Source: an uncultured Alphaproteobacteria bacterium (lineage in GTDB: Bacteria; Pseudomonadota; Alphaproteobacteria; Rhizobiales; Xanthobacteraceae). Taken from it: a DNA stretch of 64,000 nucleotides. The notes beneath the pieces were generated by a model. The model was not told the origin of the DNA, did not search any database, and saw only the letters and a program-made list of their open reading frames with translations. The stretch spans positions 249,834 to 313,833 of the forward strand of contig CAVTVG010000007.1 of assembly GCA_963738155.1 (NCBI GenBank), given 5' to 3'. Positions 322-41,840 of the stretch are shown piece by piece. A program made the position numbers and the translations under genes. Each line of letters begins with the position of its first letter. Position 1 is the stretch's first letter.

Positions 322-1101
322 TCACAAATCCGGAGGATCGAACCAGTTGGTCAGCGCAAGCCCGCCATCGATCGTGATCGCGGCTCCCGTGACATATCCC
401 GAGACCTTGTTGGAGAGAACCGCGAGTGCCATCGGTGCAAGGTCGTTGGCCTCGCCGAGGCGGCCGAGCGGAATGTGCTTCGCCAGCGCGGGATTGGCGA
501 CGAAGCCGCCGGCCGCGATTGCGCCGGGCACCAGCGCGTTGACGCGGATGGAGTGCTGTCCCAGCGACTTCGCGAGCTCCTTCACCAGCATCGCCATCGC
601 TGCTTTCGCCGACGAATAATGCGGCAAGTTGCGCGGCGTACCGGCATGAAGCGAGGTCAGAAACAGGAACGAGCCCGGCGTTTTCGCCGCGATCAGCTTC
701 TTCGCCAACTCGCGCGCGAGATGAAAACCGGCGTCGATATTGACCGCATGCATCTGCCGCCAAGTCTCGTCGCTGACGGCGAGAATGTGATCTGCCTCGC
801 GTCGCGGCGGCGAGGCGCTGTGGACGAAGTGGGTGATGCGTCCGATTTTCCCTTCGGCGTGCGCAAGCAGCGCATCGCGTGCTGCGGGCTGTCCGAGATC
901 GCCGACAAAGGGCACCGCAAGCTCGGGCCGCGAGGCAGCCTTGATCGCAGCATCCACCCTCTCCTCGCTGATGTCAGCAAACAGCGTTTTCACGCCCTCG
1001 CCGACCAGCGCCAGCGCAATCGCACGGCCGATGCCGTTGCCCGCGCCGGTCACCAGCGCCGCCTCGCGTGCGGGATCGAACGGCTCGCTCAACATACTCA
1101 T
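322..1101 (-). CDS. SDR family oxidoreductase
   Basis: TGAGNGIG Rossmann motif, YSSAK catalytic motif, IRVNALVPG. Confidence 0.92.
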   Translation of the reverse strand: MSMLSEPFDPAREAALVTGAGNGIGRAIALALVGEGVKTLFADISEERVDAAIKAASRPELAVPFVGDLGQPAARDALLAHAEGKIGRITHFVHSASPPRREADHILAVSDETWRQMHAVNIDAGFHLARELAKKLIAAKTPGSFLFLTSLHAGTPRNLPHYSSAKAAMAMLVKELAKSLGQHSIRVNALVPGAIAAGGFVANPALAKHIPLGRLGEANDLAPMALAVLSNKVSGYVTGAAITIDGGLALTNWFDPPDL

Positions 1102-1196
1102 GGCTCACGGCTCCTGCAGTTTTGGAGCCGGGCCATGAACCCTTGCCCGGCCTTCCGCGTCAAACGCATTAACTCGTCATTTCACACGCAACGACC

Positions 1197-2309
1197 ATGT
1201 TCACAAGCCATTCGCGTCGCATTGCTGCCGCCCTGATCGCCCTCTTCACCGTTTCAGCACCCGCCGTCGCCGCGCCGGCCGGCAAGCCCGTCGCCGGCCA
1301 GCAGGTACGCTTCCCCAGCGGCACCTGGAGCGCGTTGCCGCAGGTCGGCCCCGACGGCAAGGTGCAGCAATGCGTGTTGGTCGCGCTGCGTCAGCGCACC
1401 GGCAGCCATGGTCCCGTCGACACCCGCTTCTCCATCAACATCAGCCGCGGTACCGGGCTCGCGCTCATGATCCAGGACGACGGCCTGCCGAGCGAACAGG
1501 TGCTGGACGACCAGGCCGAGTTGTCGATCGAGGGCCGCGCGCTCCCAGCCGTGTTTTTCCCGATCGGGACTGCACTCGTCTTCCATCCTGGCGACGCCGA
1601 GGGCGCGCTTGCCGCGCTCGGCAAGGCGACGCAGGTCAGGCTGCGCTCCGACGGCGGCGGCATCGATTCCGGCGCGATCAGAATCGACCTCGCGCCGGAG
1701 GCGCTGAACTGGCTCAAGCAGTGCGGCAAGACCTTCGATATAGCGATCGACAAACCAACCGATCCGAACGCCCCGGATATGCCGACACCGCGGCCGCGCT
1801 CGCCGACGATCGCCTTCATTCCGGCAACGCCGGCTGGCCCGCCTGGCATGGCCGACAAGCAAAAGATCGAAGGCTGGGACGCTTCCGAGCTCCGCAACAA
1901 CGATGGCAGCATCGTCGTTTGCATGATCCGCCGCCACTACATGACGGGCTCGGAGCCGAACGCGCGCAGGCTCGCGACTTTCTTCATGGCGAGCCGCGCC
2001 AAGGGGCTCACGATGATGCTGAAGGACTCCATTCGGCACGCGACCGAGGGCGAAGCAGTCGAAGCATCGCTGAAGATGGACGACAAGTCGTTTCCACCCT
2101 TCACCGCCGCGGTGCTTGGACCCGACGAAATCGGCATCACGCCTCAGCATGGCGCGGCACTCGCCGCCGCGATCGAGAACGGCGGTCGCGCCACTTTCAA
2201 GATTGGTACCGACTACCAACTCGAATTTCCGATCCAGGCCGGTGTGATCCCGTGGCTGCGCGCCTGTGCCCGCCGCAACGGCATTCCGATCGAGCACGGC
2301 GGACAATGA
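1197..2309 (+). CDS. Secreted hypothetical protein with two internally repeated domains joined by a Pro-rich linker
   Basis: Signal peptide; both halves begin W-x(10-12)-C (GTWSALPQVGPDGKVQQC / EGWDASELRNNDGSIVVC) and end LNWLKQC / IPWLRAC. Confidence 0.7.
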   Translation: MFTSHSRRIAAALIALFTVSAPAVAAPAGKPVAGQQVRFPSGTWSALPQVGPDGKVQQCVLVALRQRTGSHGPVDTRFSINISRGTGLALMIQDDGLPSEQVLDDQAELSIEGRALPAVFFPIGTALVFHPGDAEGALAALGKATQVRLRSDGGGIDSGAIRIDLAPEALNWLKQCGKTFDIAIDKPTDPNAPDMPTPRPRSPTIAFIPATPAGPPGMADKQKIEGWDASELRNNDGSIVVCMIRRHYMTGSEPNARRLATFFMASRAKGLTMMLKDSIRHATEGEAVEASLKMDDKSFPPFTAAVLGPDEIGITPQHGAALAAAIENGGRATFKIGTDYQLEFPIQAGVIPWLRACARRNGIPIEHGGQ

Positions 2310-2413
2310 CGGGAACCGGGCGGTCACTTTGGCACCCGCCCGCTGCCGCATTTGGACTCTCTTGCCGCCGTATTGCCGCGTTAACCCCGCAAGAAGAATC
2401 GAGGGGACCCGGC

Positions 2414-2779
2414 ATGAAGTGGAAAATCGCGTTCTCGGTTTTGGCGCTGTCGCTCGCCGCTCAGGCGTCTGCGGACGAGCACCGCGGCGGCGACGCCGCG
2501 CTTGGCGCGCTGTCGGGCGCGGTCGTGCTCGGACCGATCGGCGCGGTCGCCGGCGCCGTCGTTGGCTACACCGCCGGGCCGTCGATCGCACACGCCTGGG
2601 GATTCCGCCGCGGCAGCACGGCACACCAGCGCGCGCACCCGGTCAGGCAGGAAGCGCAGGTGTCGCCGGCTCAAGTCACGCCAAGCGCCGCCACCGTCCC
2701 GGCCACGTCGCAAACGCGCCCGGCGGCCACCGCCAGAACCGCTTCCTCGAAACCGCCGCCGGTACAGACGCTGGAGTAG
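2414..2779 (+). CDS. Small secreted glycine-zipper protein
   Basis: ATG at 2414 after GAGGGG; signal peptide; GALSGAVVLGPIGAVAGAVVG; Pro/Ala-rich tail. Confidence 0.7.
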   Translation: MKWKIAFSVLALSLAAQASADEHRGGDAALGALSGAVVLGPIGAVAGAVVGYTAGPSIAHAWGFRRGSTAHQRAHPVRQEAQVSPAQVTPSAATVPATSQTRPAATARTASSKPPPVQTLE

Positions 2780-2787
2780 GTGCTTCG

Positions 2788-4365
2788 CTATTGCAGGCCG
2801 GCGAGGCGAAAACCCTCGACATAAGCTTCGCGCTCGGCCTCGTGCTTGAACGGCATCTCCTTGGCGATCCATTCGAGCGAGAGTTCAGGCTGCACGCGCT
2901 TCAATTCCTTTAGCGCCTCCTCCGCGATCTCTTCGAAGCCGCCGCACGCCGCTGCAGCCGTGAGCACGCGATGCCCGCCGACGAAATCGGCACGCAGCCG
3001 CACCGATTGCCGCGCCAGCCGCACCGCTTCCTCATAATTGCGGCCGACGAACTGGCAATAGGAGGCGACGCCGCAATAGATCGCAGCGAAGGGATCGCGT
3101 GGGCTGAGACGTAGCGCGTGACGGGCATGGCGATCGCCCTCCTCCCAGCGCCCGCAATAGGCCAGCGCCACGCCGTAATAGCCGCGTGCCAGCGAGAAAT
3201 TCGGATTGAGGCGCAGCGCCAGCTCGAACTCGGCAAGGCTGTCGTCGAAGCGGCGGTTGAACAGATAGACGCAGGCGAGCGCCAGATGCGCCCACGGGTC
3301 CTCGCTGTCGCCGTAAATCGCCGAAAGCGCCGCGCGCTCGGCGACCGGCATCGCCTGCGCCATCGTCTCCCATCCCATGTGGGCGCCGAAGCTGTGGCTC
3401 GTCGCCAGCACGCCGAGCGCCTGGCCGTAGGTCGGATCGATCTTGATCGCCTTCTCCAGCAGCGCCTGCGCCACCACATTGTCCTGCCGCGTCACGCGCC
3501 AGTAATGCGACAGCCCGCGCATCACGAGATCCCAGGCGTCCATGCTGTCGGGAGCCTTGCGCTGGGCGCGGAAATTTTCGGCGGCGTAGAGCTGCGGCTC
3601 GATCGCGGCGACAATCGACTGCGTGATCTCGTCCTGCACCGCGAACACGTCGGCGATGCTGCGGTCGTAGCGCTCGGCCCAGATGTGGCTGCCGGTCACG
3701 ACGTCGTTGAGCTGCGCCGTAATCCGCACGCGGTCGCCGTCCTTGCGCACGCTGCCCTCGACGACATAGCCGACGCCGAGTTCCTCGCCGATCTGCTTCA
3801 GATGCACCGGCTTGTCCTTGTAGACAAAGGACGAGTTGCGCGCGATCACGTAGAACCAGCGCAGCTTCGACAATGCGGTGATGATGTCTTCGCTGATGCC
3901 GTCGGAGAAATATTCCTGCTCGGCCTCGCCGCTCATGTTGACGAAGGGCAGCACCGCGATCGCGGTGCGGTCGAGCACCGGCAGCGCGAGCCGCGGATGA
4001 TCGGCTTGGTGCGCAGCCGGCTGTGAGAGGCTGAGCACCGGCTTCGCTTCGGCCGATTGCGCCTGCACCTCGCCGATGAAGCGGAAGCCCTTGCGCGCGA
4101 CCGTGCGCACCAGCTGCTGGTCGCGGCCATTGTCGTTGACCGCCTTGCGCACCGCGTTGATTCGGCTGGTCAGGGTCAATTCGGAGACGATGCGGCCGTC
4201 CCACACCTTGTCGAACAACTCGTCCTTGCTGACCACACGTTCGCTGTTCTGCACGAGATAGAGCAGAACATCGAACACCTGCGGCTCGAGCGCGACGCGC
4301 TGGCCACCGCAGCTCAGCTCCCGCCTATCGATGTCAAGCACATGATTTGTAAAGAGAAATTTCAC
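2788..4365 (-). CDS. Winged-helix (OmpR/CadC-type) transcriptional regulator with TolB-N/adenylate-cyclase-like and TPR domains
   Basis: LEPQVFDVLLYLVQNSERVVSKDEL...TVARKGFRF wHTH; IAVLPFVNMSG..QEYFSDGISEDII; TPR helices. GTG start at 4365 chosen. Confidence 0.88.
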   Translation of the reverse strand: MKFLFTNHVLDIDRRELSCGGQRVALEPQVFDVLLYLVQNSERVVSKDELFDKVWDGRIVSELTLTSRINAVRKAVNDNGRDQQLVRTVARKGFRFIGEVQAQSAEAKPVLSLSQPAAHQADHPRLALPVLDRTAIAVLPFVNMSGEAEQEYFSDGISEDIITALSKLRWFYVIARNSSFVYKDKPVHLKQIGEELGVGYVVEGSVRKDGDRVRITAQLNDVVTGSHIWAERYDRSIADVFAVQDEITQSIVAAIEPQLYAAENFRAQRKAPDSMDAWDLVMRGLSHYWRVTRQDNVVAQALLEKAIKIDPTYGQALGVLATSHSFGAHMGWETMAQAMPVAERAALSAIYGDSEDPWAHLALACVYLFNRRFDDSLAEFELALRLNPNFSLARGYYGVALAYCGRWEEGDRHARHALRLSPRDPFAAIYCGVASYCQFVGRNYEEAVRLARQSVRLRADFVGGHRVLTAAAACGGFEEIAEEALKELKRVQPELSLEWIAKEMPFKHEAEREAYVEGFRLAGLQ

Positions 4366-4393
4366 AATTCGAAGTCCCGGCCGTGGTTCGTCC

Positions 4394-4441
4394 TCAAGAA
4401 AAATCAAGCCCGCCTGAAGGCAAAATCAAGCTGGCCTCAGA
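4394..4441. promoter_or_regulatory. Five helically phased T(C/G)AAG direct repeats, likely operator of the adjacent wHTH regulator
   Basis: TCAAG 4394, TCAAG 4404, TGAAG 4415, TCAAG 4426, TCAGA 4437 (10-11 bp period) in the divergent promoter region. Confidence 0.6.
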
Positions 4442-8551: not shown

Positions 8552-8719
8552 CTAGTGCCCACTTTTCGAAGTTCGTGCTCCGTTGCATGCTACCGTTCAC
8601 GAACTTCGGAAAGTTATGGGTTACTAGCAAATCTATGATTCTAGTGCCGCTTTCGATCTGAAGTCCCTGAACCCGATTTCGCCGCGCGCGAGTCAGGGAC
8701 TTCAGATCGGCGGCACTAG
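8552..8719. repeat. CTAG-bounded double-hairpin element, copy 1 (subfamily I)
   Basis: Hairpin A 8552-8627, linker CAAATCTATGATT, hairpin B 8641-8719; near-identical to 32520-32686 and to the reverse complement of 39082-39245. Confidence 0.95.
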
Positions 8720-26383: not shown

Positions 26384-27007
26384 TCAGGCCGCGCGCCCGC
26401 CTCCGACCATTTTCGCAACCAGTTTCCACCAGCTACGATTGAAATTCACCACCGCGCGTGCCGCGTCGAGCGGCGCGTCGATCGCGAGCTTTGCAAGTTC
26501 TGCCTGCGGCGCTTGACCGACTTCGATCGTGCCGGTCGACTCGCCGTGGCTGAACACGAGGCGCGCACCGAATTTGCTGGCAAGTGCCCGCATGGCCTTG
26601 TTGCCGGCGCCGGTCGTGACCCGCAACCGGCGATAGCCCTTCCAACGCGCTTCCGACAGCAATCGCTTGAACAGAATGCTGCCGACACCTTGCCGGCGCA
26701 CGCAAGCCTCCACGCTGAAGGCGATCTCCGGCACGCCGTCGTCGGACTGCCCCGGCGGATGCAGCTCAGCTGCACCGCGCACGATGCCGTTTTCCATATA
26801 GGCGATGATAACAGTGCCATCGTCCGCGCATCTGGCGGCATAGCGCTCGACGAATTCGTCTTCCAGGTAGCCGTTGAAGCGGTCGTGGCGGCTTTCGCCG
26901 TCGAGCCGCAGCAGGTGATCGCGCAACAGCGGCAGCTCTTCCTGCTGGCTCAGGGTCCGCACATAGCCAAAGCCCGGCCGCGCGCGGTGCATGGTGTCGT
27001 CTGACAT
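26384..27007 (-). CDS. GNAT family N-acetyltransferase
   Basis: EIAFSVEACVRRQGVGSILF (RxxGxG) and NKAMRALASKFG. Confidence 0.85.
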   Translation of the reverse strand: MSDDTMHRARPGFGYVRTLSQQEELPLLRDHLLRLDGESRHDRFNGYLEDEFVERYAARCADDGTVIIAYMENGIVRGAAELHPPGQSDDGVPEIAFSVEACVRRQGVGSILFKRLLSEARWKGYRRLRVTTGAGNKAMRALASKFGARLVFSHGESTGTIEVGQAPQAELAKLAIDAPLDAARAVVNFNRSWWKLVAKMVGGGRAA

Positions 27008-27066
27008 CGCAAAACTCCTCTCAGTGTCCCTCGAGGAGGCGTCGAATCCCTAGCACCCTGATATTG

Positions 27067-27078
27067 TGCATTGCAGCA
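27067..27078. promoter_or_regulatory. Putative PhaR-type operator upstream of the GNAT gene
   Basis: TGCATTGCAGCA (TGC-N3-GCA) in AT-rich context; consensus recalled from bradyrhizobial phasin promoters. Confidence 0.45.
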
Positions 27079-27147
27079 CAAATTTCAAGAGTGCTTTAGG
27101 ATTGAAATATCGATGGAATTCGTAAACGGCCGTTAACGAATGCGGTC

Positions 27148-27310
27148 CTAGTGGAGCGGATTTGACGTTCGCTACCCACCACGAGCACTCGTAAGCGAAC
27201 GTCAAATCCAAAGCTCCACTAGAATCAATATTTTCTAGTCGTCCTTTGATTCCAACATTCGCAAGCGTGCCCGCTGCAACGGGGTGCGAATGTTGGAATC
27301 AGACCGCTAG
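27148..27310. repeat. CTAG-bounded double-hairpin element, subfamily II, full copy
   Basis: Hairpin 27148-27222 (perfect 26 bp plus AAA bulge, 20-nt loop), linker AATCAATATTTT, hairpin 27235-27310 (21-nt loop). Confidence 0.92.
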
Positions 27311-27705
27311 AGGACCATTTGGGTCTGGGTGACGATCGCGACCAACTTGCCCTCTTCGGTCTCAAGCCGCGTGGTCCAGACCTGGGTGCGGCGGCCGCGA
27401 TGCACCGGGGTGGCGGTCGCAATCAGCGTGATCCCCTCCTTCGCGCCGCCGATGAAGTTGGTCTTGCTCTCAAGCGTCGTCGTGCCCTTGGCGTCCTCGG
27501 GCAGATTGATGACGGTCGCGGCGGCGCCGACGGAGTCGGCAAAGGCCATGACCGCACCGCCATGAATGGTGTTGTTGGCGGTGCAGAGGTCCGGCCGCAC
27601 CGTCATGCGCGCCACCACACGATCCCTATCGGCTTCGACGAACGTCACGCCCTTCAAATCTGCGAACGGAATTTTCATCGAACGGATTTTCTCAAGCGGC
27701 GTCAT
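27307..27705 (-). CDS. PaaI family thioesterase (hotdog fold)
   Basis: IHGGAVMAFADSVG, TTTLESKTNF, HRGRRTQVW. Confidence 0.92.
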   Translation of the reverse strand: MTPLEKIRSMKIPFADLKGVTFVEADRDRVVARMTVRPDLCTANNTIHGGAVMAFADSVGAAATVINLPEDAKGTTTLESKTNFIGGAKEGITLIATATPVHRGRRTQVWTTRLETEEGKLVAIVTQTQMVL

Positions 27706-27824: not shown

Positions 27825-28601
27825 ATGCAGCACTTCCCTCCCCGCCGCATCGTCTGCCTCACCGAGGAAACCGTGGAGACGCTGTACCTGCTCGCCGAGC
27901 AGGACCGCATCGTCGGCGTCTCCGGCTATGCGGTGCGGCCGCCACAGGTCCGGCGCGAGAAGAAACGGGTTTCGGCATTCATCACGGCAGACATTCCGAA
28001 GATCTTTGCGCTCGCGCCGGACCTGGTGCTCGCGTTCTCCGATCTGCAGGCCGACATCGCGGCTGAACTGGTGCGCGCGGGCATCGCGGTGCATGTCTTC
28101 AACCAGCGCGATGTCGCGGGCATTCTCGCGATGATCCGCACGCTCGGCGCCATGGTCGGCGCCGCCGACCGTGCCGAGAGCTTGGCAGCCGGCTACGAGA
28201 CGCGTCTCGCCGCCATTGCTTCCATCGTGCGCGCTCCTCACCCACGAGTTTATTTCGAGGAATGGGACGATCCCCTGATCAGCGGCATCGGCTGGGTGTC
28301 CGAGCTGATCGAGATCGCAGGCGGCATCGATATCTTCCCTGAACTGCGCTCGCGCAAATCAGCCAAAGAGCGGATCGTCGCGCCCGACACGGTGCGCGAG
28401 CTTGCGCCGGATGTGATCCTCGCCTCCTGGTGCGGCAAGAAGGTCAATATCGAGAGGATTAGAGGCAGACCGGGCTGGGACGCGATCCCCGCCGTGCGCA
28501 ACAATCGCATTGTCGAGATCAAGTCGCCGCTGATCCTGCAGCCCGGGCCGGCGGCGCTCACCGATGGGCTGGACGCGATTGTCGCGGCGCTGTGGCCTTA
28601 G
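27825..28601 (+). CDS. BtuF-like / helical-backbone substrate-binding protein
   Basis: RIVCLTEETVETLY, PDLVLAFSDLQ, YFEEWDDP, ILQPGPAA. Confidence 0.82.
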   Translation: MQHFPPRRIVCLTEETVETLYLLAEQDRIVGVSGYAVRPPQVRREKKRVSAFITADIPKIFALAPDLVLAFSDLQADIAAELVRAGIAVHVFNQRDVAGILAMIRTLGAMVGAADRAESLAAGYETRLAAIASIVRAPHPRVYFEEWDDPLISGIGWVSELIEIAGGIDIFPELRSRKSAKERIVAPDTVRELAPDVILASWCGKKVNIERIRGRPGWDAIPAVRNNRIVEIKSPLILQPGPAALTDGLDAIVAALWP

Positions 28602-29878
28602 GCCTTCTCCACCCCGCACCACTCTGCAATGAACAGCGCGGTGGCCTTGGTCGACTTCCGCAGCAACTCCAGATCGACATATTCGTTGAAGCCGTGCATC
28701 GCCGCACCGGTGGCACCGAAGCATAGGCTCGGGATGTTGTAGTTCAATCCGTAGAAGCGCGTATCCGTCAGCGCGGTGAACACGAGATCCTGCACCTCGC
28801 CGCCATGGACAGCAGTGAAGCCCTTGCCGAACGCCGCCTCGGCTTCCGCAGAATTTGTCAGCTCATACCCCTCCGACAGAAAGCCCGACCATTCCACGTC
28901 GGGCGGATTGTTGGAGAGGAAGCGGTGATCGCGCGCCGCGCCGGAGACGCAGGCGAGAATCTCCTTCTGGCAATCGGCGATCGACCAGCCCGGCAGCACC
29001 GCGATCCGGCAATCGACGTCGCACCAGGCCGGCACGCTGGAAGCCCAGTCGCCGCCCTTGATGATGCCCGGGTTGAAGTTGATGGGATGGACCAGCGCCT
29101 TGAAATGGCGATCCGCTTTGGCGCGTTCGTTCCATTCGGCTTCCAGCTTCTGCAACGCGTGGATCAGATGATAGGCCGCCATGATCGCATTGGCGCCGGC
29201 GCCCGCCTCGAATACATGCACGGGAAAGCCACGCACCTTCAGCCGGAACCAGATCACGCCGACCTGCGAGCGCACCATCTTGCCGCCGGTCGGCTCCGGG
29301 ATGAAGCAGGCATCGGCGCGATAGCCGCGCTGCAGGGTCGAGAGCGCACCGACCCCGGTGCTCTCTTCCTCGATCACGGACTGAAAATGGATGCGGCCGG
29401 TCGGCTTGAGGCCGGCGGCCTTGATCGCATCCAACGCGTAGAGCGCGCCGATCGTGCCCGACTTCATATCGCAGGCGCCGCGACCGTACATCTTCCCATC
29501 CTTGACGGTGGGCGAAAATGGCGGCGTCTCCCACATGTCGAGCGGACCCGCCGGCACGACATCGCAATGGCCCTGCAGGATCAACGACTTTCCCGCGTTG
29601 TTGGATGGCCGGTAGGTGCCGACCACGGTGCGCGCTTTGGAAAAGTCGTGCTCGATCGGACCGTAGCCGCGCAGACCCTTGAGATCGTCGAGATCGATAT
29701 GCCAGTCATCGACCTCGTAACCGCGCGCGCGCAGGAGGTCCGCGATCATGTCCTGGCATGGACCTTCGGCGCCGCGGGTCGAGGGGATCGCGACAAAGTC
29801 GCGCGTGGTGGCGAGCTGCGCGTCGAAGCCGGCATCGACAGCGTCGAGGATTTTTTGTCTGGTATCGGCGGTTATCAT
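28598..29878 (-). CDS. ArgE/DapE family deacylase (M20)
   Basis: QGHCDVVP, GRGACDMKSG, EEESTG. Confidence 0.9.
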   Translation of the reverse strand: MITADTRQKILDAVDAGFDAQLATTRDFVAIPSTRGAEGPCQDMIADLLRARGYEVDDWHIDLDDLKGLRGYGPIEHDFSKARTVVGTYRPSNNAGKSLILQGHCDVVPAGPLDMWETPPFSPTVKDGKMYGRGACDMKSGTIGALYALDAIKAAGLKPTGRIHFQSVIEEESTGVGALSTLQRGYRADACFIPEPTGGKMVRSQVGVIWFRLKVRGFPVHVFEAGAGANAIMAAYHLIHALQKLEAEWNERAKADRHFKALVHPINFNPGIIKGGDWASSVPAWCDVDCRIAVLPGWSIADCQKEILACVSGAARDHRFLSNNPPDVEWSGFLSEGYELTNSAEAEAAFGKGFTAVHGGEVQDLVFTALTDTRFYGLNYNIPSLCFGATGAAMHGFNEYVDLELLRKSTKATALFIAEWCGVEKA

Positions 29879-32458: not shown

Positions 32459-32519
32459 GGAGAGCTCCGAATGGGCAGGCGAGCGGATGTAGGGAGGCAA
32501 ACTTGCCTCCGAAAGGTCA

Positions 32520-32686
32520 CTAGTGCTCACTTTCCGAAGCTCGTGTTCCCTCGCCGCACGCACTATCACGAACTTCGGAAAGTCATGGGCACTAGCAAAC
32601 TTATGATTCTAGTGCCGCTTTTCGATCTGAAGTCCCTGGGAGAACTCGCGGCCTGCGGTGCAGGGACTTCAGATCGGCGGCACTAG
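32520..32686. repeat. CTAG-bounded double-hairpin element, copy 2 (subfamily I)
   Basis: Hairpin A 32520-32595, linker CAAACTTATGATT, hairpin B 32609-32686. Confidence 0.95.
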
Positions 32687-39062: not shown

Positions 39063-39081
39063 TGTCGGCCTCTTGAAAGCT

Positions 39082-39245
39082 CTCGTACCGCCGATCTGAA
39101 GTCCCTGCACCATCCGCCGTGAATTGTTATCAGGGACTTCAGATCGGCGGTACTAAAATCATAAGTTTGCTAGTGCCCATAACTTTCCGAAGTTCGTGAA
39201 AGTGCGTGCGGCGATGGATCACGAACTTCGGAAAGTGGGCACTAG
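39082..39245. repeat. CTAG-bounded double-hairpin element, copy 3 (subfamily I, inverted)
   Basis: Hairpin B 39082-39156, linker, hairpin A 39170-39245 (perfect 26 bp plus ATA bulge). Confidence 0.95.
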
Positions 39246-41758: not shown

Positions 41759-41840
41759 CTGATGGTCCGATTTCAACATTCGCAGCCCATTCTAACAGGT
41801 ACTTTTGCGAATGTTGAAATCAAAGGACCGCTGGCAAATA
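41759..41840. repeat. Truncated double-hairpin element (subfamily II, hairpin A plus half of the linker)
   Basis: GGTCCGATTTCAACATTCGCA-N21-TGCGAATGTTGAAATC[AAA]GGACC then CAAATA; aligns with the reverse complement of 27235-27310. Confidence 0.88.

Follow-up and report, generated by a model that had tools for sequence, protein, structure and literature searches.

A mobile double palindrome inserted at CTAG keeps its hairpin arms complementary while their sequence drifts in Bradyrhizobium and related Alphaproteobacteria

The repeat at positions 27148-27310 of a 64,000-nucleotide stretch of DNA from an uncultured bacterium of the Xanthobacteraceae (Alphaproteobacteria; GenBank assembly GCA_963738155.1, contig CAVTVG010000007.1, positions 249,834 to 313,833) raises the question of what keeps the arms of a hairpin complementary while their sequence changes. 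In a first-pass annotation of this stretch, hereafter the window, with positions counted from its first letter, two subfamilies of the repeat, I and II, had been described as differing in stem sequence with pairing intact, and the difference had been read as extensive covariation in which structure plus a few bases rather than primary sequence is under selection. The repeat is shown here to be mobile DNA, inserted whole at CTAG with its ends flanked by CTAG, and it is probably a non-autonomous double palindrome of about 165 bp akin to MITEs (transposable elements of the miniature inverted-repeat kind) and bacterial interspersed mosaic elements (BIMEs). Many copies and many subfamilies occur in Bradyrhizobium, other Xanthobacteraceae and Hyphomicrobiaceae, and their arms stay Watson-Crick complementary while the sequence drifts.

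The 163-bp repeat comprises two hairpins, A and B, each bounded by CTAG, and a 12-nt A/T-rich linker between them (Table 1). All four arm strings quoted in the first-pass annotation were located, those of subfamily II hairpins B and A on the minus strand of 27148-27310, that of I-B at 8641-8669 and that of I-A at 39220-39245, with copies at one to two mismatches at 8552 and 32520; the start of hairpin A is corrected from 27236 to 27235. That each arm pairs with its partner is exact for hairpin B, whose stem consists of 10 + 16 bp around a 3-nt bulge, and nearly so for hairpin A, which combines a perfect 17-bp inner stem with an outer stem containing two mismatches that the fold leaves unpaired. 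Hairpin A additionally carries a 3-nt AAG bulge on its linker-proximal (3') arm and GCAGC in its loop. Read along the minus strand, A (27310-27235) runs CTAGCGGTC TGATTCCAACATTCGCA, loop, TGCGAATGTTGGAATCA AAG GACGACTAG, and B (27222-27148) runs CTAGTGGAGC TTT GGATTTGACGTTCGCT, loop, AGCGAACGTCAAATCC GCTCCACTAG. With DNA parameters, the two-hairpin fold reaches -55.0 and -51.8 kcal/mol on the two strands (z = -12.3 and -10.5), and the fold energy of 27148-27310 was reached by none of 200 shuffles. A fold of the type known from doublets of repetitive extragenic palindromes (REPs) that form hairpins (REPINs), in which inverted units pair together as one hairpin, was rejected, as each strand gives two separate hairpins instead. 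Many positions do differ between subfamilies II and I: of the 26 that are paired in each hairpin, 9 are changed in B and 11 in A, yet both subfamilies fold.

Further copies were retrieved from one genome per species with the pattern CTAGNAAAN{2,6}TGATTCTAGTGNNGC, which represents the linker and the first bases of B and leaves the stems essentially free. In an alignment of 107 distinct copies, from which all alignment counts below are taken, the RNAalifold consensus structure contains 48 pairs, 40 of which have undergone compensatory change on both sides, and 97.8% of the stem cells are paired. The covariation score of 0.443, compared with 0.141 +/- 0.004 in column shuffles, was reached by none of 500 such shuffles, and sliding the partners by 1-3 columns reduces it to 0.04-0.09. 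The kinship of the copies was handled by an event count on a minimum spanning tree, which puts the number of compensated pair changes at about 49 for A and at about 64 for B; edges with exactly two stem differences represent one compensated pair in 2 of 12 cases in A and 6 of 13 in B, where about 0.7% each would be expected by chance. Compensation is thus seen even between copies that are the same in all other stem bases. Extensive covariation with pairing intact therefore holds in an alignment retrieved almost independently of the stems, and the contrary outcome, a larger alignment without covariation and two unrelated palindromes, did not occur. By the common architecture and linker, and by intermediate stem types that connect them, homology of subfamilies I and II is supported.

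That the element moves is evident from three orthologous sites which lack the whole doublet. At the locus itself, the loci of relatives were traced to contigs from homologues of the upstream thioesterase (87-98% identical; an exact-protein look-up gave no record identical to the thioesterase of the window), and the spacer between the thioesterase and GNAT genes measures 130-148 nt in ten such loci as compared with 299 nt in the window, with exactly 163 bp absent as a block. The thioesterase gene ends on TGA in the relatives without the element and on the TAG of the element's terminal CTAG in the window. A longer syntenic contig, L125, is likewise devoid of window positions 32516-32685, and the third pair of sites, in the orthologous loci L034 and L101 (about 89% identity), reads AAAGG-CTTG-ATCACC when empty (L101) and AAAGG-CTAG-[169 bp]-CTAG-GTCACC when filled (L034). 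As the empty state has a single CTAG-like site and the filled state two CTAGs, the target must have been duplicated over either 2 bp (TA) or 4 bp (CTAG), and the flanking CTAGs fit both equally well. No direct repeat beyond CTAG is seen across 82 intact copies, whose flanks are weakly and symmetrically R-CTAG-Y; an IS481-type duplication of 6 bp (NCTAGN) could be rejected, since the outer A and T that it requires are present in just 24 and 21 of the 82.

The target is rare. The window holds 40 CTAGs compared with 68 +/- 7 in dinucleotide-preserving shuffles, and 14 of these 40 belong to the repeat; over 933 kb (window plus loci) there are 958, as against about 3200 expected from base composition. 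In 23 neighbouring genes the stop codon is the terminal TAG of the element, as expected if C-TAG stop codons make up a large share of the targets. Since each insertion adds CTAGs, abutting units with one common CTAG are explained as well: tandem and mixed arrays in which adjoining units share one CTAG occur at 4100-4434 of locus L006 and also in L026, L085, L106 and L111. In four DNA metagenomes, depth over 27144-27310 is about 15-270 times that of the flanks, and at 27147/8 and 27305-10 the metagenome contigs break off and diverge into many distinct continuations. A search for excision footprints, that is two CTAGs a few bases apart, gave nothing convincing, and repeated segments of at least 400 bp among the loci (at least 85% identity) were orthologous regions only, one of which provided the third empty site.

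Strong covariation, the position of many copies directly after stop codons and the abundance of the element in soil metatranscriptome contigs (X29, X34, X45) would also suit a structured RNA, either a cis-regulatory element of 3' or 5' untranslated regions or a small RNA, with two stem-loops under selection at the RNA level. We regard this as improbable. Non-Watson-Crick combinations occupy about 2% of 4811 stem cells (33 G·T/T·G, 22 A·C/C·A and 40 other), so that G·U is not favoured, although an RNA under selection would be expected to tolerate it on its own strand, and the stem mispairs show no strand asymmetry. Where the flanking genes are co-directional, the two orientations of the element are about equally frequent (27 versus 24), and 17 copies lie between convergent and 22 between divergent genes. 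Rfam gave no match at gathering scores over the whole window, and a permissive search of the locus returned chance hairpin look-alikes only. No T-run follows the hairpins of the window copies, which, together with the copies between divergent genes, rules out an intrinsic terminator, and the presence or absence of copies between close relatives likewise speaks against an RNA function. As for the metatranscriptomes, word depth over 27141-27310 reaches about 2300 compared with about 16 on the neighbouring gene; this excess of about 130-fold does not exceed the top of the range seen for DNA, and DNA may be present in such runs. Transcription is possible, and the abundance is uninformative on it and no evidence for a dedicated RNA. 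Because there is no wobble excess, orientation is even, both strands fold equally and no Rfam model applies, the level of constraint points to DNA, not RNA.

For mobile DNA, the maintenance of complementary arms has more than one conceivable cause, as the arms can be kept in step by hairpin copy-correction or by the mode of copying, without selection on each copy. In its strict form this means that pairing is unselected, the arms being kept identical by mismatch correction in a transient hairpin or by regeneration of one arm from the other, and subfamilies representing new master copies. The differences between subfamilies are indeed nearly all full Watson-Crick swaps, with 0-3 one-sided changes per pair, of the single-pair swaps that separate near-identical copies one half are transversions, for which there is no wobble intermediate, and copies within a subfamily are near-identical, i.e. 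young. On the other hand, the tree carries many one-sided, uncorrected changes on its tips, 97 for A and 56 for B, which means that resident copies decay and that correction in them is inefficient, and conserved bulges and loops persist beside the stems. Absence of selection on pairing is thus a possibility to be kept in mind, if not the one that we would expect to hold, and as it still requires hairpins to form it is a variant of the mobile double palindrome explanation and not its opposite. Selection among copies able to fold and move, hairpin correction, and palindrome regeneration in new master copies are three non-exclusive possibilities; the compensated state is found in those lineages that multiplied, which fits selection at the level of transposition best, short of proof. 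Of the proposal that structure and a few bases are selected, it stands that complementarity is kept rather than sequence and that few positions are fixed, while selection on structure is one possible cause.

Altogether, at least 112 loci match the linker pattern, and the complete two-hairpin element is present in all but one, L099, a chance match in a Betaproteobacteria metagenome-assembled genome (MAG). Nearly all source records are labelled Hyphomicrobiales or unclassified Alphaproteobacteria; MAG labels include Bradyrhizobium, Xanthobacteraceae, Afipia, Pseudolabrys, Hyphomicrobium/Hyphomicrobiaceae, Filomicrobium, Hyphomicrobiales, many uncultured Alphaproteobacteria and one Terricaulis. 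This Terricaulis copy (L054, 225-396) is the most divergent, with both stem sequences different and an extra GCAAT in the 3' arm of B; by eye, both hairpins are still largely self-complementary. Typical copies in MAGs of phyla or classes not related to the other hosts, an Acidobacteriaceae MAG (L077, a 1950-bp contig) and a Casimicrobiaceae MAG (L025, a 3915-bp contig), reflect mis-binning more likely than horizontal transfer. Variant doublets with CTGG/CCAG at their linker-side ends and a similar linker were seen at L041 7136-7400, L050 7452-7700 and L063 1408-1500; since these escaped the retrieval pattern, the family is broader than the 112 loci. Recombinant doublets exist as well, such as L111 4962-5127, which joins the A of one subfamily to the B of another.

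Throughout the family the element measures 163-170 bp, with hairpin units of 75-79 nt and linkers of 12-14 nt, and the doublet is the unit, as almost all of 44 candidate solo hairpins adjoin a linker and a partner that merely lacks CTAG. Hairpins A and B are mirror images: the 3-4-nt bulge always lies on the linker-proximal arm, a distal bulge was never seen, and a continuous 26-nt outer arm is therefore read inward from either end of the element. The outer arms of A and B are inverted relative to each other and identical at 19 of 26 positions in subfamily I and 17 of 26 in subfamily II. Nearly invariant are CTAGTG at the feet, TTCC.A..TTCG in A, T..GA.GT.C in B and the T-rich bulge, although the conservation of the CTAG closing A and of the CTAGTG..GC opening B was partly imposed by the retrieval pattern. 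Compared with the invariant positions initially named, TTCC.A..TTCG in A is at least 90% conserved, whereas in B only T..GA.GT.C is so. Among the 107 copies, 75 carry the motif GCNGC in the loop of A and 86 in that of B, as compared with 26% of random 23-nt windows. A small set of fixed bases thus exists, and these are probably protein contacts, as had been suggested. Variation in the two hairpins is furthermore coupled, in that GAAGT in A goes with GAAGT in B, AACAT or GACAT in A with GACGT or GACAT in B, and the first variable base after CTAGTG is usually identical in both. Base pairing does not account for this co-variation, which fits one protein reading both hairpins, or repeated homogenisation, and suggests a reader common to A and B. 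The CTAG target and its duplication, the mirror-image hairpins, the co-variation of A with B and an integration host factor (IHF)-like linker are points beyond the first-pass annotation.

As to the linker, the plus strand at 27223-27235, AATCAATATTTTC, matches the IHF consensus WATCAANNNNTTR with one mismatch. The window copies read AATCATAAGTTTG, AATCATAGATTTG or AATCAATATTTTC on the strand opposite to the element, and all four linkers match WATCAANNNNTTR at one mismatch, among only 19 such matches in 64 kb. While the retrieval pattern fixed part of the linker elsewhere, the window copies and the CCAG-ended L041, L050 and L063 were not selected in this way and carry a similar one. Predicted binding of IHF at this site would bring the ends of the short element together by bending it; a 165-bp duplex would otherwise be too stiff for this, and a U-turn at its centre would solve the problem. 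A central IHF U-turn is also a feature of Correia elements and of BIME-1, also termed RIB. A palindrome, an IHF-like 13-mer and a second palindrome in all four window copies, combined with high copy number and intergenic location, equally bring to mind a DNA site that serves the host as in BIME-1/RIB of Escherichia coli, for nucleoid organisation or control of supercoiling, mobility being merely the means of its spread. Insertion polymorphism between close relatives speaks against a fixed positional role, and copies decay (39080-39245 and 41763-41840), which leaves a host-serving site with little probability.

For the non-autonomous double palindrome favoured here, movement would require that the arms pair, as a DNA hairpin, as a cruciform or during copying, and a protein supplied in trans would read the CTAGTG ends, the TTCC.A..TTCG and GA.GT.C cores, the T-rich bulge and the GCNGC loops. 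Among candidate mobilising enzymes we rank first a DDE transposase acting in trans and belonging to a family with TA or CTAG targets (IS630/Tc1-mariner or IS5 type), because such targets with duplications of 2-4 bp mark IS630/Tc1-mariner and IS5-type elements. A preference for CTAG is known from IS630 and IS870, and IS5-type elements use a CTAG target with a 4-bp duplication. IS630-family elements duplicate their TA target (PMC2170065). With IS630/Tc1-mariner elements and their MITEs, the present repeat shares the TA-containing palindromic CTAG target and the arrangement C-TA...TA-G at its flanks; it differs in that no IS630-type transposase or full-length partner was found, and a 4-bp CTAG duplication of the IS5 type fits equally.

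Several observations weigh against this explanation. No autonomous element or parent insertion sequence sharing the ends of the repeat was found in about 0.9 Mb of loci, the window or the plasmid collection: the window regions scanned contain no transposase, the loci have no inverted arms at long range such as a full-length insertion sequence would show, a search for unpaired arms turned up decayed hairpins only, and the plasmid collection gave no match. In favour of a non-autonomous element, by contrast, the proteins encoded next to it are ordinary ones, in the loci SDR, ABC, GST, CoA-transferase and P450 proteins and in the window a Tlde1-domain protein, an esterase, GNAT, thioesterase, CreA, YkuD and malic enzyme; among 686 clustered predicted proteins of the 112 loci, no neighbour family recurs beyond common paralogues (SDR, ABC, GST and similar). 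Further points against are that divergence at both cross-species empty sites of the window is too great to decide between a duplication of 2 and one of 4 bp, that predicted IHF binding is read from a consensus match in a linker that was partly fixed by the retrieval pattern, and that the element is abundant in soil metatranscriptome contigs. Finally, covariation at nearly all of the 48 stem positions exceeds what the binding of a protein to two ends needs. The ends of ordinary transposons are imperfect inverted repeats, and stem-wide covariation fits a hairpin-reading enzyme of the HUH type at least as well as a DDE transposase.

A serious rival, albeit an unlikely one, is accordingly a REP- or REPIN-type element moved by a REP-associated tyrosine transposase (RAYT) or another HUH (Y1) single-strand transposase, which would read the bulged hairpins as folded single-stranded DNA and cleave beside them. 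In line with it are the long Watson-Crick hairpins, whose T-rich bulge is asymmetric and, like their loop motif, conserved, the covariation that extends to every stem position, the inverted doublet as in BIMEs and REPINs, and hairpins A and B that co-evolve as expected with a cognate enzyme; Bradyrhizobium moreover possesses Y1 transposases and several REP families (PMC3733652). With BIME-1 of E. coli (RIB/RIP, two inverted REPs flanking an IHF site) and REPs in general, the repeat shares the inverted palindromic pair around an IHF-type site, a mosaic organisation, arrays with common borders, an extragenic position often after stop codons and the coexistence of several families per genome. On the other hand, the hairpins are mirror images with bulges on opposite arms of any one strand, unlike the ends of IS200/IS605, and neither a RAYT link nor a recurring Y1 transposase-like neighbour was found in the 112 loci. 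The filled site has two CTAGs and the empty site one CTAG-like sequence, a visible target duplication of a kind that HUH elements are not known to make. Moreover, GTAG/CGTC REPs are 20-40 nt long and carry a GTAG or CGTC tag (PMC3733652), whereas the present hairpins are 76 nt, have neither tag and display CTAGTG at both ends.

To sum up these likenesses, the repeat behaves as MITEs do and has the build of BIME-1/RIB or of a Correia element. Among bacterial MITEs that have long inverted ends, duplicate TA and contain an IHF site at their centre, the Correia elements of Neisseria serve as the type case. Shared with Correia-type MITEs are the small size (about 100-170 bp), the non-coding, high-copy and intergenic nature, inverted ends of about 26 bp, a TA-containing duplication, the central IHF-like site, the lack of an attached transposase gene and presence or absence between strains. 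Here, however, each end is a complete 76-nt hairpin, which results in four arm copies per element, the target is a full CTAG, and in more than 10 subfamilies compensatory change extends to nearly every stem position; no relationship is visible between the sequences by eye. Integron attC sites are recognised by folded structure, extrahelical bases and few fixed bases, and the repeat has in common with them the dependence on structure and a few bases rather than on sequence, as the first-pass annotation had reasoned. Unlike attC sites, it is dispersed singly, and there are no cassette arrays, no nearby integrase and no GTTRRRY core sites.

Among the rhizobia, intergenic palindromic mosaic repeats with conserved secondary structure comparable to the present one are the RIMEs (intergenic mosaic elements specific to Rhizobium), Sm-repeats and AB/C palindromes of Sinorhizobium and Rhizobium (PMC2573895) and Br-REP1 and Br-REP2 of Bradyrhizobium japonicum (PMC5082802). 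The Br-REP1 consensus CCGGAATCTCGAGATTCCGG has no match in the window at up to three mismatches, the consensus of Br-REP2 is visibly different, and QMITE2 of Coxiella is a different element on comparison with its publication. A literal-string search of 8 million papers found none with the sequence of the element, and the Rfam and plasmid records searched held no description of it. The element is apparently undescribed, the RIMEs among its likenesses having been considered from their description.

According to a profile search, the window contains four doublets and one remnant and nothing further; counted as 4.5 copies in 64 kb, this is a density of about one per 14 kb. Two of the doublets lie between divergent and two between co-directional genes (Table 1).

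Table 1. Positions of the double palindrome at 27148-27310, of the stop codon within it and of the other copies in the window
Feature	Position	Strand	Remarks
Hairpin A, subfamily II doublet	27235..27310	-	CTAG...CTAG; aligned with 106 other copies
Linker, 12 nt	27223..27234	-	AAAATATTGATT on minus strand
Hairpin B, subfamily II doublet	27148..27222	-	CTAGTGGAGC / TTT bulge / GGATTTGACGTTCGCT; 26/26 paired with 3' arm
TAG stop codon of PaaI-type thioesterase gene (27307-27705, minus)	27307..27309	-	inside terminal CTAG of the element
Subfamily I doublet	8552..8719	+	A 8552-8627, linker 8628-8640, B 8641-8719; between divergent Tlde1-domain protein and esterase genes
Subfamily I doublet	32520..32686	+	flanked by creA and ykuD, which are divergent; element absent at the orthologous site in relative L125
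Subfamily I doublet	39080..39245	-	downstream of malic enzyme gene; B without TTT bulge; both CTAGs decayed (TTAG, ACGAG)
Remnant, II-like A hairpin and partial linker	41763..41840	+	partial linker CAAATAAGG; no B hairpin

Besides the repeat, the locus shows some features of its own. Directly beside the element, 27118-27141 is a 24-nt near-perfect palindrome, ATTCGTAAACGGCCGTTAACGAAT, which also occurs in L114, a locus without the element, and is consequently a part of the thioesterase-GNAT spacer in its original form, perhaps as an operator or a terminator. On the minus strand at 27007-27100, upstream of the GNAT gene, the blocks CTTGAA, GCACAATAT and CTAGGGATTCG.CGCCTCCTCG.GGG, the last directly before the GNAT start codon, are invariant in all ten relatives and look like a conserved promoter or leader. 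The thioesterase comprises 132 aa, and its homologues P0002, P0104, P0109 and P0112 are called as 160-177 aa. In L124, about 3.1 kb (792-3901) upstream of the gene for a cobalamin-type binding protein have no aligned counterpart in the window (28598-29878 region); this segment codes for a LysR regulator, an unknown protein and a Peripla_BP_5 protein and is a synteny indel unrelated to the repeat.

More speculatively, and with less confidence than in the double palindrome as such, the doublet might be the substrate of an undescribed transposition system, in which two extruded hairpins (cruciforms), brought together by an IHF U-turn in the 13-nt linker, would be read by shape and a few bases. 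Subfamilies would then co-evolve with their enzymes as REPINs do with RAYTs, and CTAG would be target and hairpin foot at once, each insertion providing three new targets. We hold this as a tentative idea that would more readily prove wrong than right, and a new principle would emerge only if the hairpin-dependent mechanism proves new.

Irrespective of the enzyme, more than 100 inferred compensated changes and two co-evolving hairpins offer a clean natural experiment on arm complementarity in palindromic mobile DNA; with the repeat it could also be tested whether bending by IHF is linked to the mobility of very short elements. Screens for RNA discovery would report the element as a structured RNA with covariation, a false call that its identity as mobile DNA averts. 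For its hosts, the repeat supplies or replaces the stop codons of genes, and it breaks metagenome assemblies. Bradyrhizobium and its relatives rank with the most abundant bacteria in soil, and the repeat is apparently very common in them, given its density in the window and its large excess of depth in soil metagenomes.

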